Positions 2,397 through 26,401 are shown, counted from the stretch's first letter. The stretch: DNA of 64,000 nt from Acidimicrobiales bacterium (GCA_963422745.1 OY730477.1:759734-823733); one strand, 5' to 3'. A program made the numbers and translations. The notes: a model not told the origin generated them from the sequence alone.

Positions 2397-2410
2397 GGAG
2401 AGCGGTTGAT

Positions 2411-2966: not shown

Positions 2967-2996
2967 TTGTTTTCGTACGGTGGTGTGTGTTATGAT
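2967..2996 (+). promoter_or_regulatory. Candidate promoter TTGTTT-18 nt-TATGAT ending 7 nt before the lipoprotein ATG (leaderless-type arrangement)
   Basis: The hexamers were read directly. The same arrangement is conserved in cassette 2 (7194..7224, TTGTTT-19 nt-TATGGT, also 7 nt before the ATG). Confidence 0.3.
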
Positions 2997-3002
2997 GTGG
3001 TG

Positions 3003-6660: not shown

Positions 6661-6669
6661 TAATCACGT

Positions 6670-6852: not shown

Positions 6853-6853
6853 T

Positions 6854-7099
6854 GTGGCGACCGTTCACTTGATGACGGATCATCGTCGCTTTACCGGCGG
6901 TGAGGGTGTTATTGAGGTGGACGGCCGAACCGTCGGCGAGGTGATCGACAATCTTGAGGTGCGCTATCCCGGGCTGGGCGAGTTGTTGCGCAACGGGTCG
7001 TCCGCTGGGATTGATGGTGAGATCCACAGCGAACCCGACCATGTTGCTGTGCAACCCGACACAACGATCTACTTCGTAGCTCCCCTTGCTGGGGGCTGA
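6854..7099 (+). CDS. MoaD/ThiS-family ubiquitin-like small protein ending in Gly-Gly (cassette 2)
   Basis: Paralog of 2411..2656 (VATVHLMTDHRRFTGGEG...IYFVAPLAGG-stop). The GTG at 6854 is preceded by GAGGAGAG. It starts 2 nt after the stop of the upstream gene remnant. Confidence 0.6.
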   Translation: MATVHLMTDHRRFTGGEGVIEVDGRTVGEVIDNLEVRYPGLGELLRNGSSAGIDGEIHSEPDHVAVQPDTTIYFVAPLAGG

Positions 7100-7193
7100 A
7101 AAGCAGGCCCAAGAGGCGGCTCTCGGTCGGGGCAAGCGGTGGGCCCTCTGCAGGGCCTGGGAGCGAACCAGTCGGGGTGGTGATGCCAGGCAC

Positions 7194-7224
7194 TTGTTTT
7201 TCATACGGCGGTGTGTGTTATGGT
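7194..7224 (+). promoter_or_regulatory. Candidate promoter TTGTTT-19 nt-TATGGT ending 7 nt before the lipoprotein ATG (cassette 2)
   Basis: This is the positional equivalent of 2967..2996. Its conservation between diverged cassettes is the main support. Confidence 0.3.
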
Positions 7225-7230
7225 GTGGTG

Positions 7231-8532: not shown

Positions 8533-10843
8533 ACGATCCTAAACAGGTTAGTATACAGGCAGGAATATTGCCCTGGCTGACGTTTTATCATCTGGTGTTG
8601 GTGTTGGCGCTTGTGTTTGGGCTGATGTTGTTGGCTGGGCCGGTTACGGCTCAAACGGATCCCGATGATGTTCCGACTGACGCGGATGCTGTGTTTCTTC
8701 ATCCTGCGGTGACGTCTTATGCTAGTGATTATTCGGTTTCGTTTGAAGTAGCAGAGCAGAACTTGCGTCGTATTGCGGAGTTGCAGAGGATTATGGTTTC
8801 GATTATTGATCTGGAACGTTCGAGAGTGGCTGGTACTGGTATTGATCATGGTATGGATATGCGCGGGTGGGTTTGGTTGGTTGGCGATGAACCAGCATCC
8901 ACGAGCGCGGCACGGATCGCGGACGCGTATGGTGATGTGGAGATACGTTTGGGTGCGGCTCACACGTATGCAGAGCTGCGCAAAGCTCAGGACAGCTTGG
9001 ACTTTGATAGTGTGACTGACCCGGGGACCAACGCAAGGCTATCTGATATGGTGGTGTACACGGCTGTGGATGTGGATGCCAACAGCGTTGAGATCGGAAT
9101 TGACCCAACGCGGGCACATACCCGTGCGCGTAGGTCCACCTCGGCGGCTCCGGTATCGGATGAAGAACTCGCTACCGAAGCTGATTGGGTTACATCGATG
9201 CTAAAGGGTTATGTTGATGTGCCGATAGTGATCGGCGATGGACGAGGGTACGGTTCCACGGCTAGTTTTCTGGGCGGTGAAGAGATGGGACTGTGTACTT
9301 CGGGGTTTGCTGCCAACAAGACGGTGGGCCTTACGGGATCATCACCGCTGGTCACTGCGAAGAGATCATTGTTATGAACGGAATTAGGTTACCGAATGTG
9401 GTTGGTTGGAAAAGCAGAACCGCTGACGCGCAGTTCCATGTCATCCCACTACCGGCAAACCCCGGAGATGACTACCACAACCTGTCTAATACCTTCAGAA
9501 CCAGTCGCTTCATGTGCTATTATCTAAGCACAATATGTGCAGTCAGAAGCGATATCGCCCGTGATGACATGGAAAAGTCTACCGATGCCCAAAGAGGGGA
9601 TTATGTTTGCCATACCGGAAAAAATAGTGGCGTATCCTGCGGAACAATCACAAACAAAGATCTAGCACCAGGTTACCCTAATGATGATGTTTGCGAAGAA
9701 GAAGATCGCACCGGTATTGTCTGTGCCCCTGTCTTCGTTAGAGTCGATGGCCCTTCGCTGAAAGCATGTGGAGGGGACAGTGGCGGTCCCTGGTACAGCG
9801 GTCTAGGTGTTGCCTATGGAATTACTATGGCCGGAAAGCAAAGGGAGGATTGCACTACCCCAGGCCAGTTCGCCGTGTTTTCTGCTGTAAGAGAGGTAGA
9901 AGACTTTCTTGGAGTTCAGGTATTGACCGCACCTCCGTCGCCGCCCGGCGCCCCGGGTGATGTCAGCGCTACCATAAAACCTAATGATGTGAGGGTTGGC
10001 TGGACTGCTCCGAGTTCAGGTGCTGCAGGCTATATCATACACCGCAAGATCCATCTTTGGGATCAGCCATACCGTGAAATCGCCAGAACAGCCATGGAAA
10101 CCAACTATAGACCTGATACCTATTTCTATGATACTGTCTCTGGCTTGGTGCCGGGCGTACGACTCACATATCGAGTCAAGGCTATTGACAACCTCGGTAA
10201 CACCGGATCCTGGTCATACTCCAATACCATAACTATCCCCACACAAACAACGGTTCCGGGCCCTCCAACAAATGTGCGCGTTACGAAGGGTCCCCGTTAT
10301 GTGAGGGTTGGATGGTCCGCTCCGTCTACCGGCGCGGCGAGCTATTATATTTATAGGCGAATCGCGCGGGACGGCCATAGATACACCAAGATAGCGACAA
10401 CATCTAAAGTCTATTTCTATGAGCTATTGGCAGGTCTAAACCCCGGAACTGAATACTACTATCGGGTCGAAGCGGTCAACAGTGTCGGCCAAACCGGGCC
10501 CTGGTCGAACTATGGTGCTATCATCACCCCCACACAAGAAACGATTCTACAAACAGCGATTCCTGGCCGTCCAACAAATGTCCGCGTTACTATAGGCCCA
10601 CGTTATGTGAGGGTTGGGTGGTCCGCCCCGTCGAACGGAGCGACGAAATATGAAATTTACAGACTCATCGCGCGGGATGGCAATCAATTAACTTGGATAG
10701 CGACGACATCTGAAGTCTATTTCTATGAGTTAGTGGCAGGCCTAAACCCCGGAACCACACACTACTATCGGGTCAAAGCGGTCAACAGTGTCGGCCAAAC
10801 CGGGCCCTTGTCAACCGCCGGTGCTATAACCACCCCAAAGTAA
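8529..10843 (+). pseudogene. S1 protease-3xFN3, cassette copy 3; frame broken by a 1-nt deletion just upstream of the catalytic His codon
   Basis: ORFs 8490..9377 and 9293..10843 are colinear with 4336..6660. gctgccaacaagacggtgggcc here aligns with gctgctaaacagaatggtgggcc in the intact copy, so one nt is missing near 9316-9322. AGGAGGAAA lies before the ATG at 8529. Confidence 0.8.
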
Positions 10844-13015: not shown

Positions 13016-14560
13016 GTGCGGCAATTGACCGAAGGTGTATTGAGGCGAGGTCGCAGAGCACGCAGGCAGTCCGTTGCGAGTGGGCCGTCTCAGCCTCCGT
13101 GGCGTCTCTTCAGGCGCCACTTTGAGCCGACGCGGGTGGTGTCAGAAGATCAACTGGAGGCGATCCATTTAGCGTCGCTGGAGGTGTTGTCAAGGACCGG
13201 CATGGACTTCCTGCATCCAGAAGCCTTGCGGCTCTGGGCCGCCGCGGGTGCCTCAGTACACGACCAAAGGGTACGGATCGACAACGATCTCGTGCTCGAT
13301 CTCATTGCCGACGCACCCCGTGAGTTCAAGCTGCACGCACCGGACCCGCAGTTTGACGTCGTCGTTGGTGCTGACAACGTTGTGTTCACAGCGGTGGCCG
13401 GTGCACCTCACTACACCGACCGTCAGAGCGGTCGTCGCTCCGGCAACCGAGAGGATTTTCGGACGCTTCTCAAGCTCTGCAAGCAATTGAACGTCATCCA
13501 GTGCAATGGGGGCTACCCGGTCGAACCCATTGATCTACATCCGTCGATCCGGCACCTCGAGGCAACCCGTGACATTGTAACCCACACCGCCAAGGTCGTT
13601 GGTGTCTACAGCCTGGGCAAACAGCGCAACCTTGACTGCCTTGAGATGGTGCGCATAGTGCGAGGTCTGCGGCCCGATGAGATCGACACCCACCCGATCG
13701 TTCACACTGTCGTCAACACGTCGTCGCCGCTGCGACTCGACACCTCGATGGTTGAGGGAATCCTTCAGTACTCGGCTCGCAATCAGGTGGTCATCGTCAC
13801 CCCCTTCACCCTGGCCGGGGCGATGGCACCGGTTACGATCCCCGGTGCGATTGTGCAACAAAACGCAGAAGCCCTCGCCGGGATTGCCTTCACTCAGCTC
13901 GTTCGTCGTGGCGCGCCCGTCGTCTACGGAGGGTTCACATCCAACGTCGACATGCAGTCCGGTTCTCCCGCTTTCGGCACACCTGAATACATGCAGTCGA
14001 CCATGCTGGGCGGCCAGCTGGCTCGTCGTTACGGTCTGCCGTATCGATCCTCGAATGTGTGCGCCGCCAACACCATTGACACCCAGGCGGGCTACGAAAG
14101 CACCTTCGCCTTGTGGGGGGCCATCATGGGTGGTGCCAACATCGTGTTCCACGGCGCCGGATGGATGGAAGGCGGGTTGCATTCCTCGCCGGAGAAGATG
14201 GTGATAGACGCCGACCTGCTGCAGATGGTCGCCACGTTCTTGACGCCGATGACGATCGACGACGCCACACTGGCGGTGGACGCGATCGCCGAAGTCGGAC
14301 CCGGTAGCCATCATTTCGGCACCCGTCACACCCAGGACCGGTATCGCGATGCGTTCTACCATCCCATGATCTCGGACTGGCGCAACTTCGAGACCTGGGA
14401 CGAGGCCCAACGCCCAACCTCATATCAACACGCCGAACGTGTAGTGAAGGAACTCCTCGCCTGCTATGAACCACCAGCGATCGACGACGCGGTGCGGGCC
14501 GAACTCGACGAGTTCGTCGACCGGCGCATAGCCGAAGGCGGTGTGGAGACCGACTATTGA
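13016..14560 (+). CDS. MttB-superfamily (trimethylamine methyltransferase-like, non-pyrrolysine) quaternary-amine methyltransferase
   Basis: 514 aa with an N-terminal RRGRRARR. SEDQLEAIHLASLEVLSRTGMDF is typical of the family. The ORF is uninterrupted, with no in-frame TAG. Confidence 0.7.
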   Translation: MRQLTEGVLRRGRRARRQSVASGPSQPPWRLFRRHFEPTRVVSEDQLEAIHLASLEVLSRTGMDFLHPEALRLWAAAGASVHDQRVRIDNDLVLDLIADAPREFKLHAPDPQFDVVVGADNVVFTAVAGAPHYTDRQSGRRSGNREDFRTLLKLCKQLNVIQCNGGYPVEPIDLHPSIRHLEATRDIVTHTAKVVGVYSLGKQRNLDCLEMVRIVRGLRPDEIDTHPIVHTVVNTSSPLRLDTSMVEGILQYSARNQVVIVTPFTLAGAMAPVTIPGAIVQQNAEALAGIAFTQLVRRGAPVVYGGFTSNVDMQSGSPAFGTPEYMQSTMLGGQLARRYGLPYRSSNVCAANTIDTQAGYESTFALWGAIMGGANIVFHGAGWMEGGLHSSPEKMVIDADLLQMVATFLTPMTIDDATLAVDAIAEVGPGSHHFGTRHTQDRYRDAFYHPMISDWRNFETWDEAQRPTSYQHAERVVKELLACYEPPAIDDAVRAELDEFVDRRIAEGGVETDY

Positions 14561-14570
14561 TCCACGGACC

Positions 14571-15830
14571 ATGAGCACCGACCCCGTCGACTGGGGATCC
14601 GACTCCGCCTGGGTCAATACCCGGGCGCCACTGCGCGAATCCTTCGGTTTAGATCCAGCGGCTTACGCAGAAGAGCGCTTCTTTCACTACGAACAGCAAA
14701 GGCTGTTCGGACGGGCTTGGGTGATGATCGCAACGGCAGCCGCTGTCGCCGAACCGGGTCGCCTGCTCGTGCGTACGGTTGGGCGCCGGTCCATCATTGT
14801 CACGCGCTCCGACGATGGCGTACTCAGGGGCTTTATCAATTCGTGCAGGCACCGCGGAACCGAACTAGCCGACGCTGACTGTGACATCGCCGGAGTGATT
14901 CGTTGTCCGTATCACCGCTGGGGCTATCGAACAGACGGCACGCTAATCACAACCCCTGGGTTCAATCAGATCCCTCGCACGGATTTCGACAGGTCCGACT
15001 ATCCGCTGTTACCGGTGCAGGTGGATACCTGGGGGGCGCTGGTGTTCGCCTGTCTCGACCCGCAAACCCTGCCATTGAGTTCATGGTTGGGTGACCTCCC
15101 CGCTCGGATGTCTGGCTACCGCTTCGAGGACTGGCGAGTGCATTCGGAGATAGAGGTCGATGTGGCGGCCAACTGGAAGCTCATTACGGAGAACTTCCAG
15201 GAGTACTATCACCTTCGCTGGGTGCATCCCGAGTTGGCCAAGGTGAGCCGGGTGGCGGACCACTATCGGTATCAGGGCCCTGGGATGTACTGCGGTCAGA
15301 CCACCACACCGGTGTCAGGCGACGAACGCGACGAGTGGCTCAGGCTCCCTCCTGCTGCCGGGCTCGACGAATCCGACGGGTCGAGCGGGCGCTTCGTCGC
15401 CGTTTTTCCCAACCTGATGTTTGCTGTTCTGCCCAATCACGCATTCGTCATCCGCCTTGAGCCGATCACTGAGGGCTCGACCCGGGAGATCTGCACGTTT
15501 CTGCTGCCTCCGGGGACCACACCTGTTGATGCAGTCGATATGGCCCCCACCCGGGCTTTCTGGTTTGACGTGAACAACGAAGACATCGACATATGCGAAC
15601 GGGCCCAGCGAGGTATCGCCTCGGGACGAGTGCCAGCGGGACCGTTGTCCCCTCGCTTTGAGGAACCGCTGCACAGATTCCACAACATGGTCGCCGATTG
15701 CCTGACCGCCGATTCGCTAACTGCAGGATCCGGGTTCACGATTCCCGGTGGTGACGACGGCTCCGAAGGTTGCCGCCTCGGCACCGGCGTCAACCCGATG
15801 CCGGTGGCGATCGATCGGTTACATGCGTAG
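14571..15830 (+). CDS. Rieske [2Fe-2S] non-heme-iron oxygenase, alpha-subunit type
   Basis: Rieske motif CRHRG...CPYHRW. The C-terminal catalytic domain has EYYHLRWVH. The ATG at 14571 is preferred over the GTG at 14541. Confidence 0.75.
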   Translation: MSTDPVDWGSDSAWVNTRAPLRESFGLDPAAYAEERFFHYEQQRLFGRAWVMIATAAAVAEPGRLLVRTVGRRSIIVTRSDDGVLRGFINSCRHRGTELADADCDIAGVIRCPYHRWGYRTDGTLITTPGFNQIPRTDFDRSDYPLLPVQVDTWGALVFACLDPQTLPLSSWLGDLPARMSGYRFEDWRVHSEIEVDVAANWKLITENFQEYYHLRWVHPELAKVSRVADHYRYQGPGMYCGQTTTPVSGDERDEWLRLPPAAGLDESDGSSGRFVAVFPNLMFAVLPNHAFVIRLEPITEGSTREICTFLLPPGTTPVDAVDMAPTRAFWFDVNNEDIDICERAQRGIASGRVPAGPLSPRFEEPLHRFHNMVADCLTADSLTAGSGFTIPGGDDGSEGCRLGTGVNPMPVAIDRLHA

Positions 15831-15917
15831 CAGCTCTAACGGAGACGGCCTTGGTGGTCACGCCAGCAATGAGAGTGCAAGACCAGACCAAGCAAGACCA
15901 AACCAAGGGGTAAGTCC

Positions 15918-18455
15918 ATGAAGGCTCAGGCTCAGGTAGTGGTGATCGGTGGAGGCGTGGTCGGGGCGTCGGTGCTGTATCACCTAACCAAGGCAGGCTG
16001 CACCGATGTTGTGTTGTTGGAACGTTCGGAGTTGAGTGCCGGATCCACCTGGCACTCTGCGGGAGGCATGCACACCCTCAACGGCGACCCCAATGTCGCC
16101 AAGCTGCAGCAGTACACGATCGGCCTCTACCGCGAACTAGAACGCGAGTCCGGCATCGACGCGTCAATGCACCTGACCGGTGGCGTGATGCTGGCAGACA
16201 CGCCCGAACGGCTGGACTGGCTGAAGATGATCCAAGCCCGGAGCCGCTACCTGGGGATCCAGACCGAACTGATCTCTATTTCTGAGGCGAAGGAGATGAT
16301 GCCTCTGATTGACGAGCGGTACTTCGTAGGGGCCATGTGGGATGCCAACGAAGGCCACCTCGACCCCAGTCAGATTACAAACGCCTATGCAACCTGCGCC
16401 CGTCGGCGCGGCGCAGAGGTCTACCGCAACAGCTGGGTGCGTGCGATCGACCGGTCCGCCGACGGCGGCTGGAACCTGACCGTTTACGACACGGTGTCGA
16501 ACGCCGATAAGGCGATCGTGTACTGCGAGCACGTGGTCAACGCTGGCGGACTCTGGGCGCGAGAAGTCGGGCGCATGGTGGGCTTGGAGTTGCCGGTGCT
16601 TGCTATGGAGCACATGTACCTGCTCACCGATGAGATCCCCGAGGTTGTTGAGTACAACCGGCGCAGCGGCAAGGAGTTAATCCACGCGATTGATTTCAAA
16701 GGCGAGATCTACACCCGCCAAGAAGGCAACGGCATGCTCTTGGGCACCTACGAGCGGCGCTGTCGGCCTTGGTCGCCGACCGAAACCCCTTGGGACTTTG
16801 ATAAGCGCCTGCTGACGCCTGATCTTGATCGGATCGCCGAATCGCTCGAGACCGGTTTCCGGCACTTCCCGGCTTTGGCCACTGCTGGCATCAAGACGGT
16901 GGTCAACGGCCCGTTTACTTTCGCCCCCGACGGCAACCCGCTGCTGGGCCCGGTCCGCGGTCTGCGTGGGTACTGGTCGGCGTGCGCTGTGATGGCCGGT
17001 TTGTCCCAGGGTGGCGGTGTGGGGCTGTCACTGGCCAATTGGATTATCGAGGGTGACCCCGGCCATGACGTCTGGGGTATGGACATAGCCCGCTTCGGTG
17101 ACTACGCCACGATGTCTTACACAGATGCGAAGGTACGCGAGAACTATTCGCGGCGGTTCAGAATCACCTTTCCCAACGAATTCCTGCCCCGAGCTCGCAA
17201 TGTCGGGACATCGCCGATACATGACCGTCTGGTCGCCTGCAATGCTGTGTTCGGCGACAACTTCGGCCTTGAGTCGGCGCTGTGGTTCCAAACGACCGGT
17301 GAGGAACCGGTGGAAGACGTCATCTTCGGGCGCTCCAACGCGTGGCCCAAGGTGCGTGAGGAGACACTCGCCGTGCGCAGCAGCGTAGGCATGATTGAGA
17401 CCACCGGCTTCTCGAAGTTCCGGTTCGCGGGCTCCGGTGCTAGAGCCTTCCTAGACCGTATTCTCGCCGGTCGGGTTCCAATTGCAGGGCGCATGGCACT
17501 CACGCCGATGACCAATGAGGCTGGCAATCTCATTGGTGACCTCACCGTCGGTGCATTGGGCGCTGCAAGAGGTGAACCGGCTGGCCTTGCGTCGACCGTT
17601 ACTGGCGGTGCCACCGCCAACACCCGCCACGACACCGAGTACATTGTGTTCGGCTCCGGTGTGGCCGAGCGCTACTACGAGCGATGGTTTGACCTGCACA
17701 TGCCTGAAGACGGCTCGGTCCGATATCAAACTCTGGGCTGGGAGATGTGTGGGCTTTCGATAGCTGGCCCCAACGCTCGAGCAATGCTGGAGAAGGTCAC
17801 CGATGCTGACGTCTCACCCGCTGGCATGCGGTTCATGGCATTCACCGAGATCAACATCGGGTTTGCCCCGGTTGTGTGCGGGCGGATCACGTTCACCGGC
17901 GACCTTGGCTACGAATTCTGGATGCCCGCGCGATATCAGCGCTACATCTTCGACGTTCTGTGCGACGCCGGTCGGGAGTTTGATCTGAGGCTCTTCGGGT
18001 TGCACACGTTGAATTCGTTGCGCCTTGAGAAGGGATTCGGATCATGGGCTCGTGAGTACCGTCCGATCTATGATCCGTTTGAGGCTGGAGTCGGGCGGTT
18101 CGTCCGGATGGACTCCGACTTCGTCGGACGCGACGCCCTAGCCGCGAAGTACGGTGATGACGGCCCCGGGTCATCGTTACGTCTGGTCACCTTCACCGTA
18201 GAGAGCGCCGGAGGTCGCGGCGGGTTTGATGCGGTCGGTGATGAGCCGATCTGGCTCAACGATTCCGTCGTTGGTTGGGTCACCTCCGGTGGTTACGCTC
18301 ATCACAGCGAGAGATCCGTGGCGATGGGCTATATCCCCGCCGCGTTGGTCGGCTCCGCTGGCCGCTTCGAGGTTGAGATCCTAGGCGAGCGCAAGCATGC
18401 GGAGATGGTTGATGGCTGCCTGTGGGACACCGCCGGGGAACGGATGCGGGGTTGA
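15918..18455 (+). CDS. Dimethylglycine/sarcosine dehydrogenase-like FAD oxidoreductase fused to a GcvT-type folate-binding aminomethyltransferase domain
   Basis: 845 aa. The N-terminus VVVIGGGVVGASVLYHL is an FAD dinucleotide fold. The size and the C-terminal GcvT-like region (GDLGYEFW, GLHTLNSLRLEKG) also fit. Confidence 0.75.
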   Translation: MKAQAQVVVIGGGVVGASVLYHLTKAGCTDVVLLERSELSAGSTWHSAGGMHTLNGDPNVAKLQQYTIGLYRELERESGIDASMHLTGGVMLADTPERLDWLKMIQARSRYLGIQTELISISEAKEMMPLIDERYFVGAMWDANEGHLDPSQITNAYATCARRRGAEVYRNSWVRAIDRSADGGWNLTVYDTVSNADKAIVYCEHVVNAGGLWAREVGRMVGLELPVLAMEHMYLLTDEIPEVVEYNRRSGKELIHAIDFKGEIYTRQEGNGMLLGTYERRCRPWSPTETPWDFDKRLLTPDLDRIAESLETGFRHFPALATAGIKTVVNGPFTFAPDGNPLLGPVRGLRGYWSACAVMAGLSQGGGVGLSLANWIIEGDPGHDVWGMDIARFGDYATMSYTDAKVRENYSRRFRITFPNEFLPRARNVGTSPIHDRLVACNAVFGDNFGLESALWFQTTGEEPVEDVIFGRSNAWPKVREETLAVRSSVGMIETTGFSKFRFAGSGARAFLDRILAGRVPIAGRMALTPMTNEAGNLIGDLTVGALGAARGEPAGLASTVTGGATANTRHDTEYIVFGSGVAERYYERWFDLHMPEDGSVRYQTLGWEMCGLSIAGPNARAMLEKVTDADVSPAGMRFMAFTEINIGFAPVVCGRITFTGDLGYEFWMPARYQRYIFDVLCDAGREFDLRLFGLHTLNSLRLEKGFGSWAREYRPIYDPFEAGVGRFVRMDSDFVGRDALAAKYGDDGPGSSLRLVTFTVESAGGRGGFDAVGDEPIWLNDSVVGWVTSGGYAHHSERSVAMGYIPAALVGSAGRFEVEILGERKHAEMVDGCLWDTAGERMRG

Positions 18456-18665: not shown

Positions 18666-19892
18666 ATGGTGGCTATGGGGGACAAAATCATCCTTGTAGA
18701 AGGCGTCTACAAGATTTTCGGGCCCCAGCCCGCAGGACGAGCCTTGGATCTTGCCCGGTCCGGTGTGGGCAAAGACCAAGTCCAAGCCGAGACGGGTCAT
18801 GTGATCGGCCTCCACGACGTGACTTTCTCAGTACGCAAAGGTGAAATCTTTGTGATTATGGGCCTATCCGGCTCAGGCAAATCCACGGCATTGCGTGCGG
18901 TTAACAAGCTTCATGAAGTCACCGTTGGCACTGTAGCGGTTGACGGCATTGACGTGCAAGCGTTGGAGGGCACTGATCTTCAGGCCTTCCGCCGGGAACA
19001 TATGGGCATGGTGTTCCAGCATTTTGCCCTGTTCCCGCATCGCAATGTCATAGATAATGTGAGCTATGGCCTCAAGGTTCAAGGTGTCAACAAGAAAACC
19101 CGCGAAGAAGCGGGCATGCGGGCATTGGGTCTTGTCGGTCTGGGCGCTTACGCCATGAATTTTCCGTCCGAGTTGTCGGGCGGCATGCAGCAGCGGGTTG
19201 GGCTGGCCCGGGCGCTGACCTCAGATCCTGAAATCTTGCTGATGGATGAGGCCTTCAGCGCGCTTGATCCGTTGATACGCCGTCAGATGCAGGATGAAAT
19301 GATGGAGATCCAAAATGAACTCCAGAAGACGATTCTTTTTATAACACATGATCTCAATGAGGCACTGCGCATTGGCGATAGGGTATGCATAATGAAAGAT
19401 GGCGCAGTTGTGCAGATCGGCACACCTGATGAGATTCTCACCGAGCCCGCTACCGGCTATGTGGCCGAATTCGTCCAAGACGTAGACCAAGGCCGAGTGA
19501 TACAGGTACAGGACATTATGGGTGCGTCCCGTCCGGTTGCGAAAGACACTACTCTGTCCAACGCGCTGGCCGAGATGGGTGAACGGAACGGAGACTTTGT
19601 TCTGGACAGCAGCGGCATTCCTACGCATTTGCTCACAATGGATGATGGCCTTCGAGCCGCGAGCATGGGCAGTACCGCGTTAACACCCGCTCTGCGTGCC
19701 GACTTCCCCAAATGCTGTCCTGAAGATACACTCAACACCGTGTACGCAGCAGCGGGACGGGGTCTACCGATCGCTGTGTGTGACAAGTCGACGGGCGAGC
19801 TTATGGGCAGTCTGGATCCCAGGGACATCTTGGAAGAGATGGGCCGAGTTGAGAACCTGATAGACGACTTTGAGCGTGAGGTGTTCATGTAA
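18666..19892 (+). CDS. proV: Glycine betaine/proline ABC transporter ATP-binding protein
   Basis: Walker A GLSGSGKST, signature LSGGMQQRV, Walker B ILLMDEAFSALD, plus a C-terminal CBS-like extension as in ProV/OpuAA. Confidence 0.85.
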   Translation: MVAMGDKIILVEGVYKIFGPQPAGRALDLARSGVGKDQVQAETGHVIGLHDVTFSVRKGEIFVIMGLSGSGKSTALRAVNKLHEVTVGTVAVDGIDVQALEGTDLQAFRREHMGMVFQHFALFPHRNVIDNVSYGLKVQGVNKKTREEAGMRALGLVGLGAYAMNFPSELSGGMQQRVGLARALTSDPEILLMDEAFSALDPLIRRQMQDEMMEIQNELQKTILFITHDLNEALRIGDRVCIMKDGAVVQIGTPDEILTEPATGYVAEFVQDVDQGRVIQVQDIMGASRPVAKDTTLSNALAEMGERNGDFVLDSSGIPTHLLTMDDGLRAASMGSTALTPALRADFPKCCPEDTLNTVYAAAGRGLPIAVCDKSTGELMGSLDPRDILEEMGRVENLIDDFEREVFM

Positions 19893-20005: not shown

Positions 20006-21253
20006 ATGAACAAAAGACATGGACGCTTGTTGCTGTCATTATTTGTTGTAGTAGCGTTGTTCGCGGCTGCCTGCGGCGATGATGATGACACGTCCCCTGA
20101 AGAGACTACGCCTCCTGAAGAGACTACGCCTTCAGGGACAGAGACTACGCCTCCTGAAGAGACTACGCCTCCAGAGACAGAGACTACGCCTCCTGAAGAG
20201 ACTACGCCTCCAGAGACCACGCCTCCTAAAGAGACTGATGAGATGCCTGGTGAGGGCGTAACGGTCAGAATGGCTCGAGCCGACTGGACAACAGGATATT
20301 TCCAGGCTCAGGTTCACAAGCAACTCTTGGAAGAGCTCGGCTATGAGGTGACCGAGCCGTCTGAACGGGAGCTAGGCCCGTCGTTGGCTTATTTGGCTAT
20401 GGCTCAGGGCGATATTGACTTCTGGGCTAACAGTTGGTACCCGGGCCATAAATCATGGTTGGCGCCAGAGATGCCTGACGGGTCTTTGGTGGGAGACCAT
20501 CTTGAGATTGTGGGCGAACAGATGATGGGTGGCGGCCCTCAGGGTTTCGTGATTACAAAGTCGGTCGCCGATGAGTATAACATCACTCATCTTGATCAGC
20601 TGAATGACGATCCGGAAATCACCGCTATGTTTGATACTGATGGAAACGGAAAGGCTAATATCTACGGCTGTCCCGAGAGTTGGACCTGCGATGATATCAT
20701 CAACAGCCAGATAGCATTTTCGGGTTGGGATAACATTGAACAGGTTCAAGCGGGTTACGACGCTATGGTGGCAGAGGCTGAGACAAAGGTCAATGCCGGT
20801 GAGCCCGCTGTACTCTATACATGGGCTCCTAGTGGATATGTCACCCAATTCCGGCCCGGCGACAACGTTGTGTGGCTGGCAGTTGAGGAAGTGATTGATG
20901 ATTCAAACCCGACCGGCCTAGAGGGCGGCGAGGGGCATGATCAGACACCCGGACAGGTTCCTATCGGGCCAGATCAGTGTCCTGCAGCTGCGGATTCAGG
21001 TGCCTGTCAGGTTGGTTGGATAGCAGCCGATATCCAGGTTACAGCCAATAGTGATTTCCTTGCAGCCAATCCGGCCGCGAAAGCTCTGTGGGAGGCGGTT
21101 ATCCTGTCACCCGTTGATGTGACGCTAGCAATCATTGAGCAGAATAGCGGGAAAGACTCGGAACCTGAAATAGCTCAGTTGGCTTCCGACTGGATCGCAG
21201 ACAATCGAGCTGTTGTTGATGAATGGATAGCAACTGCTAAGGCTGCTGCGTAA
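20006..21253 (+). CDS. proX: Glycine betaine ABC transporter substrate-binding lipoprotein
   Basis: The signal ..VVALFAAAC is followed by a TTPPEE-rich linker. It sits in the ProX-type context between proV and proW, and GGAGGG lies upstream of the start. Confidence 0.75.
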   Translation: MNKRHGRLLLSLFVVVALFAAACGDDDDTSPEETTPPEETTPSGTETTPPEETTPPETETTPPEETTPPETTPPKETDEMPGEGVTVRMARADWTTGYFQAQVHKQLLEELGYEVTEPSERELGPSLAYLAMAQGDIDFWANSWYPGHKSWLAPEMPDGSLVGDHLEIVGEQMMGGGPQGFVITKSVADEYNITHLDQLNDDPEITAMFDTDGNGKANIYGCPESWTCDDIINSQIAFSGWDNIEQVQAGYDAMVAEAETKVNAGEPAVLYTWAPSGYVTQFRPGDNVVWLAVEEVIDDSNPTGLEGGEGHDQTPGQVPIGPDQCPAAADSGACQVGWIAADIQVTANSDFLAANPAAKALWEAVILSPVDVTLAIIEQNSGKDSEPEIAQLASDWIADNRAVVDEWIATAKAAA

Positions 21254-21272
21254 TTCTAGCTAGTTGATTTTG

Positions 21273-21308
21273 AGAGATGAGGGTGGGGCCGATCCCACCC
21301 TCATCTCT
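21273..21308 (+). terminator. Stem-loop (15-bp perfect stem, 6-nt loop) just after proX; candidate intrinsic terminator
   Basis: agagatgagggtggg-gccgat-cccaccctcatctct. The following T-tract is weak (ttgttg). Confidence 0.5.
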
Positions 21309-21497
21309 TGTTGCTAGCCTCAATTATGTATGGAACATGCCCTCGGTGTCGGTTGTCACCTTGCATGCTGGCATATTGTGGTATCTGATTGTGCCTTGCC
21401 TCTTTTTGGTCCTGGCTGGGTGATGTCTCTTGATGTCCTCAAGATGAGCTGCTAACGTGAACCCAACCCAAGAAAAGATGAGAGATGGTGGGGGGCC

Positions 21498-23426
21498 ATG
21501 AGGGGAACCATGATGTGGTCGCCTAGGTGGGTACGCCTGCCCCTGTTGTGGTTTGTAAGTGTACTAATGGCCAGTGCAGCAGTAGCCATAATTCTGTCAG
21601 TTCCGGCTGTAGCAGGTGCCAATGCTGAAACTGGCAGGACTACTGGGCCAGGATCACAGTCCTGCCCGGACACTGGCCCAGGGGAAACAGTGGTATTGCG
21701 GGAGGGGACTTGCGTGATTTCCTGGACCAAGACAACTGACGGAGTAGCGGATTGCTCCAACCGCTCCGGTGATCCAAATCCGTGGACCCTAAACGGTGTG
21801 CAATGCATTCGTGTAGTCAATGAGGAATATCAGGTCCAGACCACACGACGGGTGGCGCCCTTTTCGGAGCGGGTGCGGGTGGCGCCGTTCTCAAAGCGGG
21901 TACGGGTGGCGCCCTTTTCGGAGCGGGTGCGGGTGGCGCCGTTCTCAAAGCGGGTGCGGGTGGTGCCCTTTTCGGAGCGGGTGCGGGTGGCGCCCTTTTC
22001 GGAGCGGGTGCGGGTGGCGCCGTTCTCAAAGCGGGTGCGGGTGGCGCCGTTCTCAAAGCTGATCTATCAGCCTGTCCCCTACACATACAATGTGGAGATC
22101 CGGGATAGATGCGTGCGTTGGAATTACCAGAATGGTGAATGTACAGGGTGGAGATATCGAACTGAGATTCGTAAAGGCTTTAAGGTTGGTCCAGTTAGGG
22201 TGCCATTATACAACTATGAAACCAGAGATCTCTATAAGTATGAAACTAGGCAGGTCTACAACTATGAAACCAGAGAAGTCTACAACTATGGCTCTAAGGA
22301 TGTCCATAACTATGGCTCCAAAGATGTCTACAATTATGAAACTCAAGAAGTCTACAACTACGATACTAGAGAGGTCTACAACTATGAGAAAATCTATGAC
22401 ACACGGACTAGACCGGTCACCAAAATAAAACCGCATATCTTGGTCTGCCCCGACGGGTTCGCTCGCGATGGTCAACGTTGCTCCCGGCAGATGATTAGGA
22501 GGGTGACACCAATACCATTGATGTCAGCTCCTTCAGCGCCTGAGGGCCGAGCTGTGATAGTCGGTGATGGGAAGGTGACGCTCAAGTGGGCATCAAATGG
22601 TAAAGATACCACGTCTGAATATCAATGTTGGTACAGACCCGTAGGTTATCGTGAGGCGTGGATTAGATCTGTAGTCACATCCAGCCTGAGTTGTACCATA
22701 ACAGGCTTGGCCAACGGGACTGCCTACCATTTTGCAGTACGGGCAAGCAATCAAGCTGGCACAAGTTCATCCTTCACATGGCCTCATGTTGCACTACCGT
22801 TGCCTAAACCGAATATGGTTATTGAAGTACAAGAAAGTATTTCAACTAGTTCTTCTAGTACAACCACTGATGGTAGTTGTAGAATCTGGTCAGATGTTGA
22901 TGCTCGTATAGTCTTTGAGCCTCTTCACCACATGCAAGCTGATATTACCTACCAATTTGAGTGCAACGGTATCTGGGAAATGCTTGATGAACCTATTGAG
23001 GCAAATTTCTTTGGTCCTGTATTGTGCCTCCATGATCTAAGCGATCTTGATCTTGATAAAACGATGTGGGTAAGTAAATCTTACTGCACTGTTTTCGTCG
23101 CCAAGAATGTAGGATTCTACCAGTCTGCAGTTGATGATATAGCAGCAAACCTTAAGAAAATGCTCAATGACGCTAATGTTGTAGTTGACACTAAATGGGT
23201 CGATTTTTCTCAGATAGCAGACTATACGACAAGTGTAAGTTTCGAGGTAGAGTATGTTTCAACTAGCATAGTTGCTTCAAGGGGTGGTGTCGAATCCTGG
23301 CAGCGTCAAATATATGGGACAGCCTTAGCAATAGGAAGCAATTCAGGGTTTTTCCCCATAGTGGCCTGGGGCAAAGAAGGTAGTCCCTATATCATAGACA
23401 ATGTCATTACTGTCCGCCCGAAGTGA
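21498..23426 (+). CDS. Secreted repeat-rich protein of unknown function with one FN3 domain and a low-GC C-terminal domain
   Basis: 642 aa. The signal peptide ends ..PAVAGANA. It contains VAPFS[EK]RVR x7.7, YNYETREV-type octads x7.5, and an FN3-like segment (KVTLKW....Y...YR......W........C.ITGL.NGTAYHF.V.A.N). Sample lines in the C-terminal third count 40-43% GC by hand. Confidence 0.6.
   Translation: MRGTMMWSPRWVRLPLLWFVSVLMASAAVAIILSVPAVAGANAETGRTTGPGSQSCPDTGPGETVVLREGTCVISWTKTTDGVADCSNRSGDPNPWTLNGVQCIRVVNEEYQVQTTRRVAPFSERVRVAPFSKRVRVAPFSERVRVAPFSKRVRVVPFSERVRVAPFSERVRVAPFSKRVRVAPFSKLIYQPVPYTYNVEIRDRCVRWNYQNGECTGWRYRTEIRKGFKVGPVRVPLYNYETRDLYKYETRQVYNYETREVYNYGSKDVHNYGSKDVYNYETQEVYNYDTREVYNYEKIYDTRTRPVTKIKPHILVCPDGFARDGQRCSRQMIRRVTPIPLMSAPSAPEGRAVIVGDGKVTLKWASNGKDTTSEYQCWYRPVGYREAWIRSVVTSSLSCTITGLANGTAYHFAVRASNQAGTSSSFTWPHVALPLPKPNMVIEVQESISTSSSSTTTDGSCRIWSDVDARIVFEPLHHMQADITYQFECNGIWEMLDEPIEANFFGPVLCLHDLSDLDLDKTMWVSKSYCTVFVAKNVGFYQSAVDDIAANLKKMLNDANVVVDTKWVDFSQIADYTTSVSFEVEYVSTSIVASRGGVESWQRQIYGTALAIGSNSGFFPIVAWGKEGSPYIIDNVITVRPK
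21852..22058 (+). repeat. In-frame 27-bp tandem repeat x about 7.7 (VAPFS[E/K]RVR)
   Basis: gtggcgcc recurs every 27 nt from 21852 to 22041. Confidence 0.9.
22209..22388 (+). repeat. In-frame 24-bp tandem repeat x 7.5 (Y[NK]Y[EGD][TS][RKQ][DEQ][LV])
   Basis: tacaactatgaa-type units were read directly. Confidence 0.9.
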
Positions 23427-23432
23427 GGAATC

Positions 23433-23537
23433 ATGGTCGCTCCGGTAGATCAAAGTAAGAAGTTGGTCTTTCTCTTCCTTGGCGTTCTATTTATGGTAAC
23501 TTGCTTGACGACTTTGAATGGAGGCGTTCATAAATGA
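23433..23537 (+). CDS. 34-aa hydrophobic micro-protein, translationally coupled to proW (below the ORF-track length cutoff)
   Basis: ATG at 23433 with GAGGA 4 nt upstream. It translates to MVAPVDQSKKLVFLFLGVLFMVTCLTTLNGGVHK. Its TGA (23535-23537) overlaps the proW ATG (23534-23536) as ATGA. Confidence 0.45.
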   Translation: MVAPVDQSKKLVFLFLGVLFMVTCLTTLNGGVHK

Positions 23538-25624
23538 GCTACTTAGCTCAAACTACTGACAAAGAGCCGGGTGATCCCTCGCTACTAGATAATCTTGTGC
23601 TTGACGAGTATGAGATTCCTTTTGGCGCGTGGATGGACCAGGCGGTTGACTGGATTTCGGTCAACCTCGGCTGGCTGCTAGATGTGATCAGGTGGCCCTT
23701 TAGGACCCTGATCAACTTCTTGGTCCAGGACATCTTGGAGCCGGTTTCCTGGGTATGGGTAATCCTGCTATTCTTTGTGATCGGCTCCCTGGTGAGAAAC
23801 ATCAAGGTCGGTGCCTTTGCCGGTATTGGCCTAGGGGTGTGCGGACTCCTCGGTAATGCTCTATGGCTTGAGACGGCGCGCACGATCGGTTATGTGGGTG
23901 TGGCCGTTCTGTTGTGTGTTTTGATCGGTATTCCGGTCGGAATAGCGTGCGGCCGGATGGACGCATTGTGGCAGGTGGTCAGACCGGCGTTGGATGCCAT
24001 GCAGGTCGTGCACTCATTCGTCTACATGCTTCCGTTCATCTATTTCTTTGGTGTAGGAGAAGTTTCGGCCACGATGGTGACGATGGTATTCGCGTTGCCG
24101 CCGCTGGTGCGGCTCACCAATCTCGGTATCCGTCAAGTACCTGAGGATGTTGTGGAGGCAAGCCGAGCTTACGGAGCTCCCGAGTGGCGGGTACTCATTG
24201 ATGTGCAGATTCCGTTGGCTCGATCTGCCATCATGACCGGCATCAATCAGACTTTGTTGCTAGCTATATCCATGCTAGGCATCGCGGCGATCATGGGCGC
24301 AGGAGGTCTGGGTCGCCCGCTCTTGGGCGCGCTGAACCGTCAAAGTGTGGCGGAGGGTGCTGCGGCCGGATTGGCCTTCTTCTTAGTTGCAGTCGTTCTT
24401 GATCGCGTTTCTCAGCCCGAGAAAACCGATGGAGGGAGCTTGTTCCGCCGTATCCGCTTAGCTTGGGCCCACCGTCGTGATCCGGAAACTCTATTGAAGG
24501 ATGACGTTGACCCCGCCGCGGATGAACCCGCTGCTGTTGACGTGACAACCCGGTCTGATGTTACCGTGGCTACGGTTACAACCGCGGAACGCAGGGCCAT
24601 TCTGGTGGCAGCAGCTGGCGGCGTGCTGGCGGCTCTTTCCGTGTTTTTCACGTGGAGTAGCGGAGCTGGCTTTCTGAGCGCCTACGGCCGCCGAGTTGAC
24701 GAAGAACTCATAGGTCAGTCCTTCAACGGCTTCTCGGCTAGTGGCGGGTCATGGTTTGGATATCTGGTTTTTGTTCTTGGGTTGTTCACGGTTGCTGCAG
24801 CCGTCACGACGGTTCTCGCCCCCGGCCGAGGGCCGCGCTGGTGGGCTACGGATGGCGCTGTGATATTCTCACTGGCCCTATTGGTTACGGTAGGCTGCTA
24901 CATGCTGGCCGCACCCTCTGATCTGACGGTCGGCCAAACCACTGGAATCGGCGTGTACTTGAGTCTGGTCGGGGCGCTGGTTGCAGTATTCGGATCAGTG
25001 TGGTGGTTACGTCTAGCGCCCTACTCGTCGGTTCGTCCACTGTCTACCGGAATCGGGTGGGGCCGGCTGGTCGGCTCGGGTGCGGCTGTGATTATTGTTG
25101 CTATAGGTGCGATCTCGGGGTGGAGCTTTGATGGTAGAGCTGACTTGATTTTCTCAGCCGATGCCCTAGCCCAAATTGAAGCTTTGGAAGCTGAAGCCCG
25201 AGCGAACCCCGCTGATGCGGGTGTTATAGCCATGAAGATCGCAACTCTCTCAGAAGAACTCAAAACCGAAAAGAGTATCATTGTTGATGGGATCAGTAGC
25301 GAGGGATCCGGGTTGGGGATCTGGACTTTTTTGGTCGGTTTGGCTGGTTTAGCCGTTTCATTGCCTGCGGCAGGGTGTTTCGGTTGTCTTGAACGTGATC
25401 GGTGGCTCTGGAGCACAATCACGGCTGGGATTGGGGCCGGAGTTGCGAGCGTGGCATTTGGATGGATTTTCACTCACGTGCGTTCTGCTGACGACAACTA
25501 CTTGAGCGGTGTTGGATCGTTTCTTGTGTTAGTGGGTGGTTGTGTGTTGGTGGCCAGTACGGCGGGAGTGCTCAAGGAGTTCCGCCGCTCTAAAGTGTAC
25601 TCGGGTGTGGTCAGCGCAAACTAA
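23534..25624 (+). CDS. proW: Glycine betaine ABC transporter permease fused to an approximately 390-aa C-terminal multi-TM extension
   Basis: The N-terminal approximately 300 aa look like ProW (FGAWMDQAVDWI.., EAS.AYGA motif, LPPLVRLTNLG). The rest is hydrophobic, with about 8 predicted TM segments. GGAGG lies 10 nt upstream. Confidence 0.8.
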   Translation: MSYLAQTTDKEPGDPSLLDNLVLDEYEIPFGAWMDQAVDWISVNLGWLLDVIRWPFRTLINFLVQDILEPVSWVWVILLFFVIGSLVRNIKVGAFAGIGLGVCGLLGNALWLETARTIGYVGVAVLLCVLIGIPVGIACGRMDALWQVVRPALDAMQVVHSFVYMLPFIYFFGVGEVSATMVTMVFALPPLVRLTNLGIRQVPEDVVEASRAYGAPEWRVLIDVQIPLARSAIMTGINQTLLLAISMLGIAAIMGAGGLGRPLLGALNRQSVAEGAAAGLAFFLVAVVLDRVSQPEKTDGGSLFRRIRLAWAHRRDPETLLKDDVDPAADEPAAVDVTTRSDVTVATVTTAERRAILVAAAGGVLAALSVFFTWSSGAGFLSAYGRRVDEELIGQSFNGFSASGGSWFGYLVFVLGLFTVAAAVTTVLAPGRGPRWWATDGAVIFSLALLVTVGCYMLAAPSDLTVGQTTGIGVYLSLVGALVAVFGSVWWLRLAPYSSVRPLSTGIGWGRLVGSGAAVIIVAIGAISGWSFDGRADLIFSADALAQIEALEAEARANPADAGVIAMKIATLSEELKTEKSIIVDGISSEGSGLGIWTFLVGLAGLAVSLPAAGCFGCLERDRWLWSTITAGIGAGVASVAFGWIFTHVRSADDNYLSGVGSFLVLVGGCVLVASTAGVLKEFRRSKVYSGVVSAN

Positions 25625-26198
25625 GGAAACCGTAGCCTCTGAAACCCGTAACTTCTGAAACCCGTAGCCAGTTGATGAAGTTCAGAGACGGAGTTTGAGA
25701 GGCGCGCCCAGCTTAGCCTGGAGAATTGACTAGCTGATCCTTGTGCTCCATGAGGCCGGTGTCAACAGCCATGATCGTCCCTTTGTGGCCGCGCCGACGA
25801 CCCTGTCAACATTACGGTGGCGCGAGCTTGAGGTAGCGCGGTGCCCTTCGCCTTTATGTAATTTGTGTGGTCGGCGCAAATGTGACCGAAGTCACCGCGG
25901 AATAGTTGCGATTCTTGGGTCTAACTGGCAAGATGCTGACATCGGCCCATGGGGCCGGACCTGAGCATCCGGGACTGCCGGCTCTTCCCAACGGTAAGCG
26001 CGCGACACGGTGTCGCCGCCATCTTTCCCAGGAGTACTGCCATGGTGCACTACAACGTTTCTTTCTCGCGTGTATGGCGTGAGGCAATGGGTCCCGGTTT
26101 CGTCTCGGGTCCAGGTGAGAAGACCATCGCGGTAATCGCCGCGGCATCGGTCGGTCCATCTGGGGCTGGGCGTCCCGGTCGTCGCCGCTAGACGACAA

Positions 26199-26339
26199 TC
26201 CGCAGTTGGCCAGGACGACCGTAGTTGGCCAGGCCGACGGCAGTTTGATAAGGCCGACCGTAGTTGGCCAGGCCGACGGCAGTTTGATAAGGCCGACCGC
26301 AGTTTCAACAGGCTGACCGCAGTTTGAACAGGCCGACCG
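26199..26339. repeat. Array of about 7 degenerate 19-20-bp direct repeats (includes a 39-bp higher-order unit x2)
   Basis: ccgcagttggccaggacga / ccgtagttggccaggccga / cggcagtttgataaggccga (x2 as a 39-mer) / ccgcagtttcaacaggctga / ccgcagtttgaacaggccga. Confidence 0.85.
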
Positions 26340-26401
26340 ATATCGCATCATGACTTAGGTGTTCAAGGTGATAGATGCCCGGTCCCTCTAGGCTCGGTGT
26401 T

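Follow-up and report, generated by a model that had tools for sequence, protein, structure and literature searches.

Probable reshuffling of a ProU/OpuA-type transporter operon around a resident gene for a secreted repeat protein in an uncultured member of the Acidimicrobiia

Glycine betaine ABC transporters of the ProU/OpuA type are encoded by three-gene operons, proV-proW-proX in Escherichia coli and opuAA-opuAB-opuAC in Bacillus subtilis. We analyzed a 64,000-nucleotide stretch of DNA from an Acidimicrobiales bacterium (OY730477.1, 759734 to 823733; here called the window), in which the ATPase gene proV, the substrate-binding protein gene proX, and the permease gene proW of such a transporter are all present and intact. 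The locus differs from the described operons in its gene order, with the permease gene lying 3.6 kb from the ATPase gene and behind a hairpin that formerly marked the end of the operon, and in an extra multi-transmembrane C-terminal region of ~400 amino acids (aa) in proW. Between proX and proW lies the gene for a secreted protein of 642 aa with repeats and a fibronectin type III (FN3) domain, a position that had been noticed in an original prediction and with which the open reading frame (ORF) map and Pfam agree. The host appears to be an uncultured bacterium of the Acidimicrobiia; its nearest named relatives are the sponge symbionts Candidatus Poriferisodalis and Candidatus Poriferisocius, and its source environment was judged from these relatives.

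Several described systems resemble the secreted protein in part. In streptococcal antigen I/II (SpaP/AgI/II), A and P repeats that are separated in the sequence associate into a long stalk. The likeness is one of principle only, in that two separated repeat arrays would pair one to one and the number of matched copies would set the length. Antigen I/II pairs an alpha-helix with a polyproline-II helix and carries a large domain at its tip, whereas the arms of the window protein are predicted to be beta strands joined by a small two-cysteine turn, with the domains at the base, and the two proteins have no sequence relationship. Long beta-hairpin and beta-helix assemblies (the stems of aerolysin, lysenin, and anthrax protective antigen and the triple beta-helix of T4 gp5) offer a second comparison: the best, but nonsignificant, Foldseek matches have very long beta-hairpins. 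The window repeats differ from these assemblies in being polar and highly charged and in not resembling membrane sequence.

Polymorphic toxin systems (Zhang et al. 2012, PMC3482391), and with them the Sec-dependent S8-PTS/BetaH toxins of Gram-positive bacteria (PMC9424270), share with the family of the window protein a signal peptide, a conserved N-terminal module, and C-terminal domains that recombine and are highly diverse, and some family members are followed by arrays of small paralogous genes. The N-terminal module of the family, however, looks like a repeat stalk and not like a known trafficking or receptor-binding domain such as the globular BetaH (PMC9424270); the family payloads (protease, phospholipase A2, Calx-beta, FN3) look extracellular or host directed rather than nuclease-type; and the window copy lacks an immunity gene, a releasing peptidase, and any known toxin domain. 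An enrichment of eukaryotic-like fn3 and Calx-beta proteins has been reported for sponge-associated Acidimicrobiia (PMC11706023). The window protein is like those proteins in being secreted, containing FN3, and coming from the Acidimicrobiia, and other FN3 proteins are encoded in the window, but its repeat stalk and its C-terminal domain (domain D) are not described there.

Gene order of the operon and a relic of proV

We hold with moderate confidence that the operon was reshuffled around an old secreted-protein gene that was already resident beside it and that the protein belongs to a rare, undescribed family with a paired-repeat stalk. For comparison we used seven loci: four found by scanning genome contigs with proX (L003 to L006; best match, 63% identical), the locus of a family member, P0010 (L011), and the loci of the closest proW homologues (L014 and L015). 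All seven have the order proV-proW-proX, and in every one of them proV and proW overlap by 1 to 4 nt and are translationally coupled. The window has proV-proX-hairpin-642-aa gene-proW, so that the contiguous ATPase-permease-binding protein order is missing. The original prediction had taken proV-proX-proW to be the normal order and the secreted-protein gene to be an insert. Since the comparators agree on proV-proW-proX, the window shows a rearrangement of gene order and not a simple insertion. The comparison with relatives that had been proposed as a check thus reveals an atypical order in the window, and finds counterparts of the gene beside the operon in L011 and L014, but it does not bear out insertion into a standing order.

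A short relic of a proV lies directly before proW (Table 1). Aligned with the intact 3' end of the window's own proV (19854 to 19888), it has 28 identical positions in 35 columns with one gap (score, 33, versus 14.4 +/- 2.3 for shuffled sequences; z = 8.0), and it aligns with the proV of L011 at a z of 10.0. Both alignments end exactly at the junction between the proV stop and the proW start. Read in the proV frame, the relic gives NLLDDFE-EAF, compared with NLIDDFEREVFM in proV, and the GGAGG ribosome-binding site of proW is retained within it. The relic implies that proW once followed a proV directly and that this copy of proV was lost; because an intact proV stands upstream, a second copy of at least the junction must have existed.

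The relic also bears on the 34-aa micro-ORF that the original prediction had described as coupled to proW. The coupling is there, as the TGA of the micro-ORF overlaps the proW ATG in the ATGA manner. The last third of the micro-ORF, however, is the proV relic read out of frame, so that the micro-ORF is probably in large part a by-product of the junction, without an independent origin. The idea of an independent conserved gene was dropped; at most, the micro-ORF may relay ribosomes from the 642-aa gene into proW.

The gene carrying domain D follows the operon in L011, precedes it in L014, and lies inside it in the window, so that the simplest path would pass through operon copies on both sides of the gene. 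The ancestral layout would have been proV-proW-proX-hairpin with the secreted-protein gene beside it. Two operon copies, arising either as paralogous operons or by tandem duplication of the unit, would have come to flank this gene, and reciprocal losses, of proW from the left copy and of proV and proX from the right copy, would have left proV-proX-hairpin, the secreted-protein gene, and the 34-nt proV relic followed by proW.

The hairpin after proX fits in this history as an ancestral element. The original prediction had described it with a 15-bp stem at 21273 to 21308; the hairpin is indeed present, and its perfect stem is 2 bp longer (Table 1). Its free energy is -38.8 kcal/mol (z = -6.6), and none of 200 shuffled sequences folded as well. 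Related GC-rich hairpins (GGGUGGGGC...CCCACCC) lie shortly 3' of proX in all seven comparators, and the window and L011 hairpins align as DNA at a z of 9.1. The hairpin was therefore not brought in by an insert, and proW now stands behind a hairpin that used to end the operon and that is probably an ancestral operon terminator or an mRNA-stabilizing stem. There is no U-tract after it, the tail UCUCUUGUUGCU being without at least five U residues in eight, and for lack of a T-run the consensus terminator scan did not call it. Terminators lacking a U-tract have been reported in Actinobacteria.

Similarity between the window and L011 spacers ends at the hairpin, with none detectable beyond it. The spacer upstream of the 642-aa gene, which presumably holds the promoter and ribosome-binding site of that gene, had been called AT rich and put at ~190 nt; the length stands at 187 nt, and the base composition is just mildly AT rich (50% GC, versus a window mean of 59%). 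A consensus sigma-70 scan gave no site on the plus strand anywhere in the operon and is hence uninformative about promoters here. The sole Rfam matches were three distant tRNAs; within the locus, no RNA element came up, and the interval from the 642-aa gene to proW forms no terminator-like or stable RNA fold (z = +0.7). With a strong hairpin before proW and no such fold between it and the 642-aa gene, a dependence of proW on read-through or on the promoter of the upstream gene is plausible. Most likely, we infer, proW is transcribed together with the secreted-protein gene, from the promoter of that gene plus any read-through of the hairpin, in which case permease output would be tied to the expression of the secreted protein.

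Table 1. Features of the transporter locus, with positions counted from the first nucleotide of the window
Feature	Position	Strand	Basis and details
DMGDH-like gene	15918-18455		ORF map
proV, OpuAA-type ATPase	18666-19892	+	Pfam ABC_tran, E 1.2e-30; weak CBS match, E 0.007
proX, OpuAC-type substrate-binding lipoprotein	20006-21253	+	Pfam OpuAC, E 1.4e-32, 113.8 bits versus cutoff of 21.2
GC-rich hairpin after proX	21271-21310	+	Perfect 17-bp stem, 21271-21287/21294-21310, 6-nt loop; tail UCUCUUGUUGCU
Spacer upstream of 642-aa gene	21311-21497	+	187 nt, 50% GC
642-aa gene, secreted modular protein	21498-23426	+	ORF list
Sec-type signal peptide, aa 1-41	21498-21620	+	Predicted cleavage after AVAGA
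Cysteine-rich head, aa 52-116	21651-21845	+	Four cysteines, conserved in family (alignment); pLDDT 73-90 for aa 51-115
Stalk arm 1, eight 9-aa A repeats RVRVAPFS[E/K]	21848-22059	+	Tandem Repeats Finder (TRF), period 27, 7.8 copies; GC3 0.85
Stalk tip, aa 189-237	22062-22208	+	C205 and C215 flank turn; pLDDT 73-93 (aa 180-240); strands 167-209, 214-253
Stalk arm 2, eight 8-aa B repeats VYNYETRE, ending YNYEKIYDTRTRPV	22209-22424	+	TRF array 22209-22387, period 24, 7.5 copies
FN3 domain, aa 347-426	22536-22775	+	Pfam fn3, E 8.5e-7, 29.5 bits versus cutoff of 25
C-terminal domain D, aa 433-642	22794-23423	+	Four cysteines, no annotated family; GC3 0.36
Micro-ORF, 34 aa, hydrophobic	23433-23537	+	Starts 7 nt past stop of 642-aa gene; GAGGA before start
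Relic of last 12 codons of a proV	23498-23531	+	1-nt deletion; local alignment to proV 3' end
proW, OpuAB-type permease, intact	23534-25624	+	Pfam BPD_transp_1, E 2.7e-20; NCBIfam ProW/ChoW type

Age and composition of the secreted-protein gene

Counterparts of the gene stand beside the operon in two of the comparators, which marks it as a long-standing neighbor and not a recent insertion. L011 shares the flanks of the window (genes for MTTB, a Rieske oxygenase, a DMGDH-like protein, a Cys/Met pyridoxal phosphate enzyme, and a major facilitator superfamily transporter; 60 to 82% identity), with the transporter block inverted relative to these shared genes, and its proV-proW-proX-hairpin is followed immediately by the family gene and then by a rhodanese gene. 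The family gene consists of an ORF with a signal peptide, a G17 tract that puts the two parts one base out of phase, and P0010, whose stalk module is 40% identical to that of the window protein. The G17 homopolymer (L011, 9716 to 9732) may be a phase-variation switch or a long-read homopolymer error. In L014, an ORF of 1199 aa (5028 to 8627) lies directly upstream of proV; the gene caller overlooked it and called short ORFs there, mostly on the opposite strand. It encodes, in order, a signal-like N terminus, T/P-rich repeats, two FN3 domains, a homologue of domain D, and four more FN3 domains. Genes encoding domain D thus stand next to such an operon in three genomes, each time in another arrangement.

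The original prediction of a 642-aa secreted repeat protein stands in all its parts, with the signal peptide, repeat arrays, and FN3 domain present. The signal peptide was recognized by inspection of the sequence, from a basic N-region, a hydrophobic core, and small residues at -3 and -1, and a database protein, P0001, is 100% identical and uses the alternative start at 21510. The FN3 domain is the sole Pfam or NCBIfam domain in the protein, taking up ~13% of its length; it matches FN3 sequences in the PDB with E values down to 4e-7 and is 42% identical to the FN3 domains of the L014 ORF. The ORF is probably a functional gene, with a modular extracellular protein secreted through the Sec pathway as its product.

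The gene is compositionally atypical and internally mosaic. Its GC content at third codon positions (GC3) is 0.49 overall, 0.85 in the A repeats of the first arm, 0.49 in the B repeats of the second, 0.44 in FN3, and 0.36 in domain D. The flanking housekeeping genes have a GC3 of 0.70 to 0.74 (core, ~0.72), and proV, proX, and proW have values of 0.61, 0.51, and 0.59. The second arm is 38% GC, and arginine, which is encoded by CGG in the A repeats, is encoded by AGA/AGG in the B repeats. The C-terminal third (aa 433 to 642), put at 40 to 43% GC in the original prediction, came out at 41.7%, with the drop sitting at synonymous sites. The composition and codon check that had been proposed therefore turned up both a fall in GC3 and a switch of arginine codons.

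Such values, 0.36 to 0.49 over most of the gene versus 0.70 to 0.74 in the core, are what a recent horizontal transfer might leave, and the original prediction had read the locus in that way: a foreign gene, or a C-terminal cassette, inserted into proV-proX-proW together with the hairpin, the spacer, and a promoter. The arginine codon switch between the A and B repeats points in the same direction, as do the four or five of seven comparator operons that have no such neighboring gene and the rare and patchy occurrence of the family, with a few dozen members among 5.8 billion proteins. We nevertheless consider insertion unlikely. Insertion alone cannot yield the observed order from proV-proW-proX, the hairpin is the conserved one found after proX, and the relic before proW records the loss of a proV copy. 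The gene is not flanked by an integrase, a transposase, a tRNA, or a repeat boundary. The counterparts share the anomaly: domain D has GC3 values of 0.36 (window), 0.35 (L011), and 0.41 (L014), where neighboring genes have values of 0.70 to 0.87 (0.76 to 0.87 in L011 and L014) and where, within the L014 ORF itself, GC3 is 0.82 downstream of domain D. With identities of just 19 to 30%, these three copies cannot all have been imported recently; the anomaly is a property of a fast-evolving segment, and low GC3 that recurs in both relatives does not speak for a recent transfer. Possible causes are weaker selection at silent sites and weaker biased gene conversion there. Of what had been inferred from the composition, the mosaic structure (GC3 of 0.85 versus 0.36) survives, and a recent horizontal origin at this site has become unlikely.

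Domain D was compared with 1.84 billion representative sequences in an exhaustive phmmer search, which returned only the protein itself and Ser/Thr-rich low-complexity matches, and it had no match in Pfam, NCBIfam, or, by sequence and by profile, the PDB. This orphan result partly reflects copies that are uncalled or diverged. Domain D is 27% identical to the corresponding part of P0010 in L011 in a pairwise alignment (E 5e-4) and 19% identical in a three-way alignment, with four of four cysteines aligned; against L014, the colinear block of FN3 and domain D reaches an E value of 4e-26, and domain D alone is 25% identical (E 1e-4). AlphaFold gave domain D a pLDDT (predicted local distance difference test) score of 34 from a two-sequence alignment, and both FN3 and the C terminus scored below 50 when the whole protein was modeled. 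The structure prediction and profile searches that had been suggested for the C terminus thus assigned no family and no confident fold. Searches of Pfam, NCBIfam, the PDB, and the 1.84 billion representatives revealed neither a recognizable catalytic motif nor a known toxin relative in domain D, and no catalytic activity was identified for the window member as a whole. Going by sequence and model, it most likely takes part in binding or other interactions, either on the surface of the cell or within the host matrix, a role that fits the fn3 and Calx-beta enrichment of sponge-associated Acidimicrobiia (PMC11706023).

The ORF, or its AT-rich C-terminal third, might instead be a decaying remnant of the rearrangement, with proW dying behind it. 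The region is clearly rearranged, two of three neighboring FN3-protease cassettes in the window are frameshifted, and the L011 counterpart is interrupted at the G17 tract. Decay is nonetheless very improbable, given that the frame stays open for 642 codons through sequence of 38 to 42% GC, where stops would be frequent, that cysteines and motifs are conserved with distant homologues, and that the signal peptide and FN3 domain are intact. The permease gene behind it is full length, 72 to 73% identical to its orthologues, and has kept its ribosome-binding site.

The repeated adjacency of gene and operon raises a further question, namely, whether the secreted protein has a functional tie to the transporter, for example by docking the cell on host material or by releasing or capturing quaternary amines for uptake, so that selection maintains the linkage and the joint expression with proVWX. 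The three genomes with three arrangements would fit such a tie, as would the probable cotranscription of the window gene with proW across a junction free of terminator-like folds, the betaine/methylamine catabolic neighbors (MTTB, Rieske oxygenase, DMGDH-like), and the hydrolases (phospholipase A2, protease) carried by other family members. We give this little credence as an explanation of the locus, because inherited synteny with local rearrangement suffices for the linkage, such a neighbor is absent from four or five of the seven comparator operons, other family members occur in unrelated contexts, and no binding or enzymatic motif is recognizable in the protein.

A family with two, possibly paired, repeat arrays

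The reshuffled operon surrounds a gene whose product has relatives over only part of its length: homologues (P0002 to P0015 and P0052 to P0067) cover just the N-terminal 36 to 46% of the 642-aa query. A profile search brought in further members but left the family small, at the few dozen members among 5.8 billion proteins mentioned above, and scans of JGI metagenome contigs with the protein and with the module profile gave no confirmed relative. Named members come from the sponge-associated Candidatus Poriferisodalis and Candidatus Poriferisocius. The shared module has the order signal peptide, cysteine-rich head, 9-aa A repeats (RVRVAPF[ST]x), two-cysteine linker, 8-aa B repeats (VYNYETRx), YNYEPVYETRTR end, and CPxGF...C loop. 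The window protein has the signal peptide, the V[AP]PF-type 9-aa and YNYE-type 8-aa repeats (8 A and 8 B), and the two-cysteine tip, in which C205 is invariant and C215 is present in at least 90% of a 20-sequence alignment, with both invariant in an 11-sequence alignment. The A/B module has no sequence match in Pfam, NCBIfam, or the PDB. Judged by these searches, the A/B-repeat stalk family is rare, undescribed, and without a public name, and domain D is likewise new.

The numbers of repeats in the two arrays go together. Of 18 curated members with separate arrays, 15 have as many A as B repeats (counted by eye; range, 3 to 11; Pearson r = 0.95; 0 of 100,000 permutations reached the observed value), and within the range of 7 to 12 this holds for 10 of 13 (p 3e-5). 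Other members depart from the simple order of motifs. Writing the two arms on either side of a slash, we found ABBBBBBB/AAAAAAAB in P0022, AAAAB/ABBBB in P0063, P0066, and P0067, and (BA)6/(BA)6 in P0054, and the sequence of P0058 reads BABABABABAB/ABABABABABA. Counted outward from the cysteine tip, the A repeats of either arm always stand opposite B repeats in all of these alternative-order members. AlphaFold with the 20-sequence alignment returned a mean pLDDT of 51 (head, 73 to 90; tip, 73 to 93; base, 83 to 90), and DSSP assigned long strands to residues 102 to 209 and 214 to 312 of the model, i.e., one very long hairpin. From the matched copy numbers, the complementary repeat order, and the AlphaFold hairpin, the A and B arrays appear to fold back on each other and pair into a stalk.

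In such a structure, the eight A repeats of the window protein would run out from the cysteine-rich head to the tip and the eight B repeats would return as antiparallel A:B pairs, giving an elongated beta stalk with a length set by the copy number. The base of the stalk would carry the payload, here one FN3 domain and the fast-evolving, four-cysteine domain D. We put forward only tentatively, and at somewhat short of even chances, a more general proposal: that the N-terminal module is an undescribed length-tunable stalk in which A pairs only with B and the arrays change only in complementary fashion (A8/B8, AB7/A7B, A4B/AB4, (BA)6/(BA)6), that it presents interchangeable effector or binding domains in symbiotic Acidimicrobiia, and that domain D is a hypervariable binding module, AT rich at silent sites in every genome, which is kept beside the betaine transporter for a functional reason.

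A Foldseek search of the PDB gave only nonsignificant matches, to long-hairpin protomers of pore-forming toxins (best E value, 4.5e-3, with a probability of 0.20 and a TM-score of 0.06; maximum probability, 0.23; TM-score, no higher than 0.07), and the 8-aa repeat of P0005 matched Gp5_trimer_C weakly and below the cutoff (E 1.3e-4). With no significant Foldseek or Pfam match, we dropped an assignment to pore-forming toxins or gp5-like proteins.

The C termini of the family are diverse and include a HELGHxxGxxH/D motif with a downstream Met (metzincin-like, as read from the sequence), phospholipase A2 (prokaryotic PF09056 in P0033, E 1e-11), Calx-beta, FN3, and unassigned domains; two members start with a type IV pilin-like methylation motif. 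With its signal peptide, conserved N-terminal module, and highly variable C termini, among them metzincin-like and phospholipase A2 domains, the family has the architecture of polymorphic toxins (PMC3482391, PMC9424270), and in the window domain D could then be a toxic payload and the hydrophobic micro-ORF, which sits where an immunity gene is expected, its immunity protein. The metzincin-type members in L001 and L002, which are followed by three to five tandem lipoprotein paralogues, would fit the same scheme. For the window gene, we find the scheme improbable. One third of the supposed immunity protein is an out-of-frame proV relic, the L011 copy is followed by the rhodanese gene with no comparable small ORF, and domain D has neither a catalytic motif nor a known toxin relative; in L014, moreover, it sits in the middle of a six-FN3 protein, a placement more in keeping with a binding module than with a toxin that is set free. 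The tandem paralogous lipoprotein genes that follow the metzincin-type genes (L001, 11931 to 15328; L002, 11699 to 17433) encode Thr/Pro-rich tails, and their products could be inhibitors or immunity proteins.

Weighing, surroundings, and significance

Several observations weigh against the reshuffling and stalk that we propose. The window proW and proX group with L014 and L015, the flanks group with L011, and proV is equidistant: proV is 72 to 75% identical to that of all seven comparators, proX is 72 to 78% identical and proW 72 to 73% identical over its full length to those of L014 and L015, and the proV genes of L014 and L015 are 86% identical to each other. The history would thus include a mixing of paralogues or lineages beyond what the simple model resolves. 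The closest comparator genomes are at ~70 to 80% protein identity, and there are no intermediate states among them. Just one relic was found, with no trace of the lost proW in the proV-proX spacer, no proX relic after proW, and no repeat linking the 750-bp stretch after proW with the rest of the locus; a possible trace of a proW-proX spacer at 25700 to 25730 is marginal (5 of 500 shuffles reach it), and we do not rely on it. The homology of domain D is weak when the domain is taken alone (L014, E 1e-4; L011, E 5e-4). On the side of the stalk, the repeat arrays have low confidence in the model (pLDDT, 40 to 60), a two-layer packing of short strands fits the copy-number and complementarity data equally well, and the repeat counts were curated by eye from regular-expression matches in related members, so that the p-values overstate independence.

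We had at first treated L003 to L006 and L011 as the closest orthologues. This was dropped when the proW search gave closer proW and proX genes in L014 and L015, and we claim no simple orthologous series. Among the comparators, L005 and L006 have proV genes that are 86% identical and proW genes that are only 44% identical, and L006 and L011 are 74% identical in proV and 73 to 82% identical in proX. These values suggest recurrent exchange at the proV/proW boundary in this group.

The transporter itself was assigned, as one of the glycine betaine/choline type, by family-level matches together with its MTTB/Rieske oxygenase/DMGDH-like neighborhood; glycine betaine, choline, carnitine, and proline are the candidate substrates. 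In NCBIfam, proW matches the choline permease TIGR03416 (E 3e-68) and ProW NF008196 (E 2e-62), both under the equivalog cutoffs, and the T/P/E-rich tether of proX is encoded by repeats at 20096 to 20236 (TRF). The genes for an MTTB-family methyltransferase, a Rieske oxygenase, and a DMGDH-like protein beside the transporter (13016 to 18455) form a quaternary-amine demethylation neighborhood, and the transporter therefore probably imports a nutrient and not only an osmoprotectant. The C-terminal extension of proW (24434 to 25624; ~400 aa with several hydrophobic segments) is shared by the proW genes of L003 to L015, with a conserved length but little conservation of its sequence; in these Acidimicrobiia, proW encodes 685 to 884 aa in total, versus ~350 aa for E. 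coli ProW.

After proW, 750 bp (25625 to 26374) are without a convincing gene; they contain 16-bp repeats (25626 to 25669), a folded region (z = -4.2), and ~39-bp tandem repeats (26200 to 26340). In L014 (16183 to 21060) and L015 (14995 to 19548), the operon is closely followed by a WXG100 gene and a gene for an FtsK/SpoIIIE (EccC-like) type VII secretion ATPase, and the window has no counterpart of them. At its start (19 to 10843), the window carries three tandem cassettes, each encoding an unannotated protein of 450 to 537 aa and a secreted protein of ~770 aa with the S1-protease motifs TAGHC and GDSGGP and three FN3 domains. The protease genes of cassettes 1 and 3 are split by frameshifts (19 to 756/732 to 2219 and 8490 to 9377/9293 to 10843), and the region has a GC3 of 0.47 to 0.53 and a strong GC skew.

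On the reading that the operon was reshuffled around a resident gene, the locus is a clean, datable case of a transporter operon that was reordered without losing any component, with a relic that preserves the ribosome-binding site of the displaced gene. If cotranscription is true, the outcome is that a housekeeping permease has come under the transcriptional control of a surface-protein gene. The locus also illustrates that low GC content and atypical codons are unreliable signs of recent horizontal gene transfer, as the same domain is AT rich at silent sites in three long-diverged genomes. What would be new is the A/B stalk family and domain D and, to a lesser degree, a well-marked operon rearrangement. 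If the pairing of the two arrays is true, it would provide a new and simple rule for beta-strand pairing, of interest to protein designers, and could explain how symbionts display variable effectors. The family also enlarges the set of candidate factors by which these bacteria may interact with their sponge hosts, as it is an unannotated group of secreted proteins whose payloads include protease, phospholipase, FN3, and Calx-beta domains.

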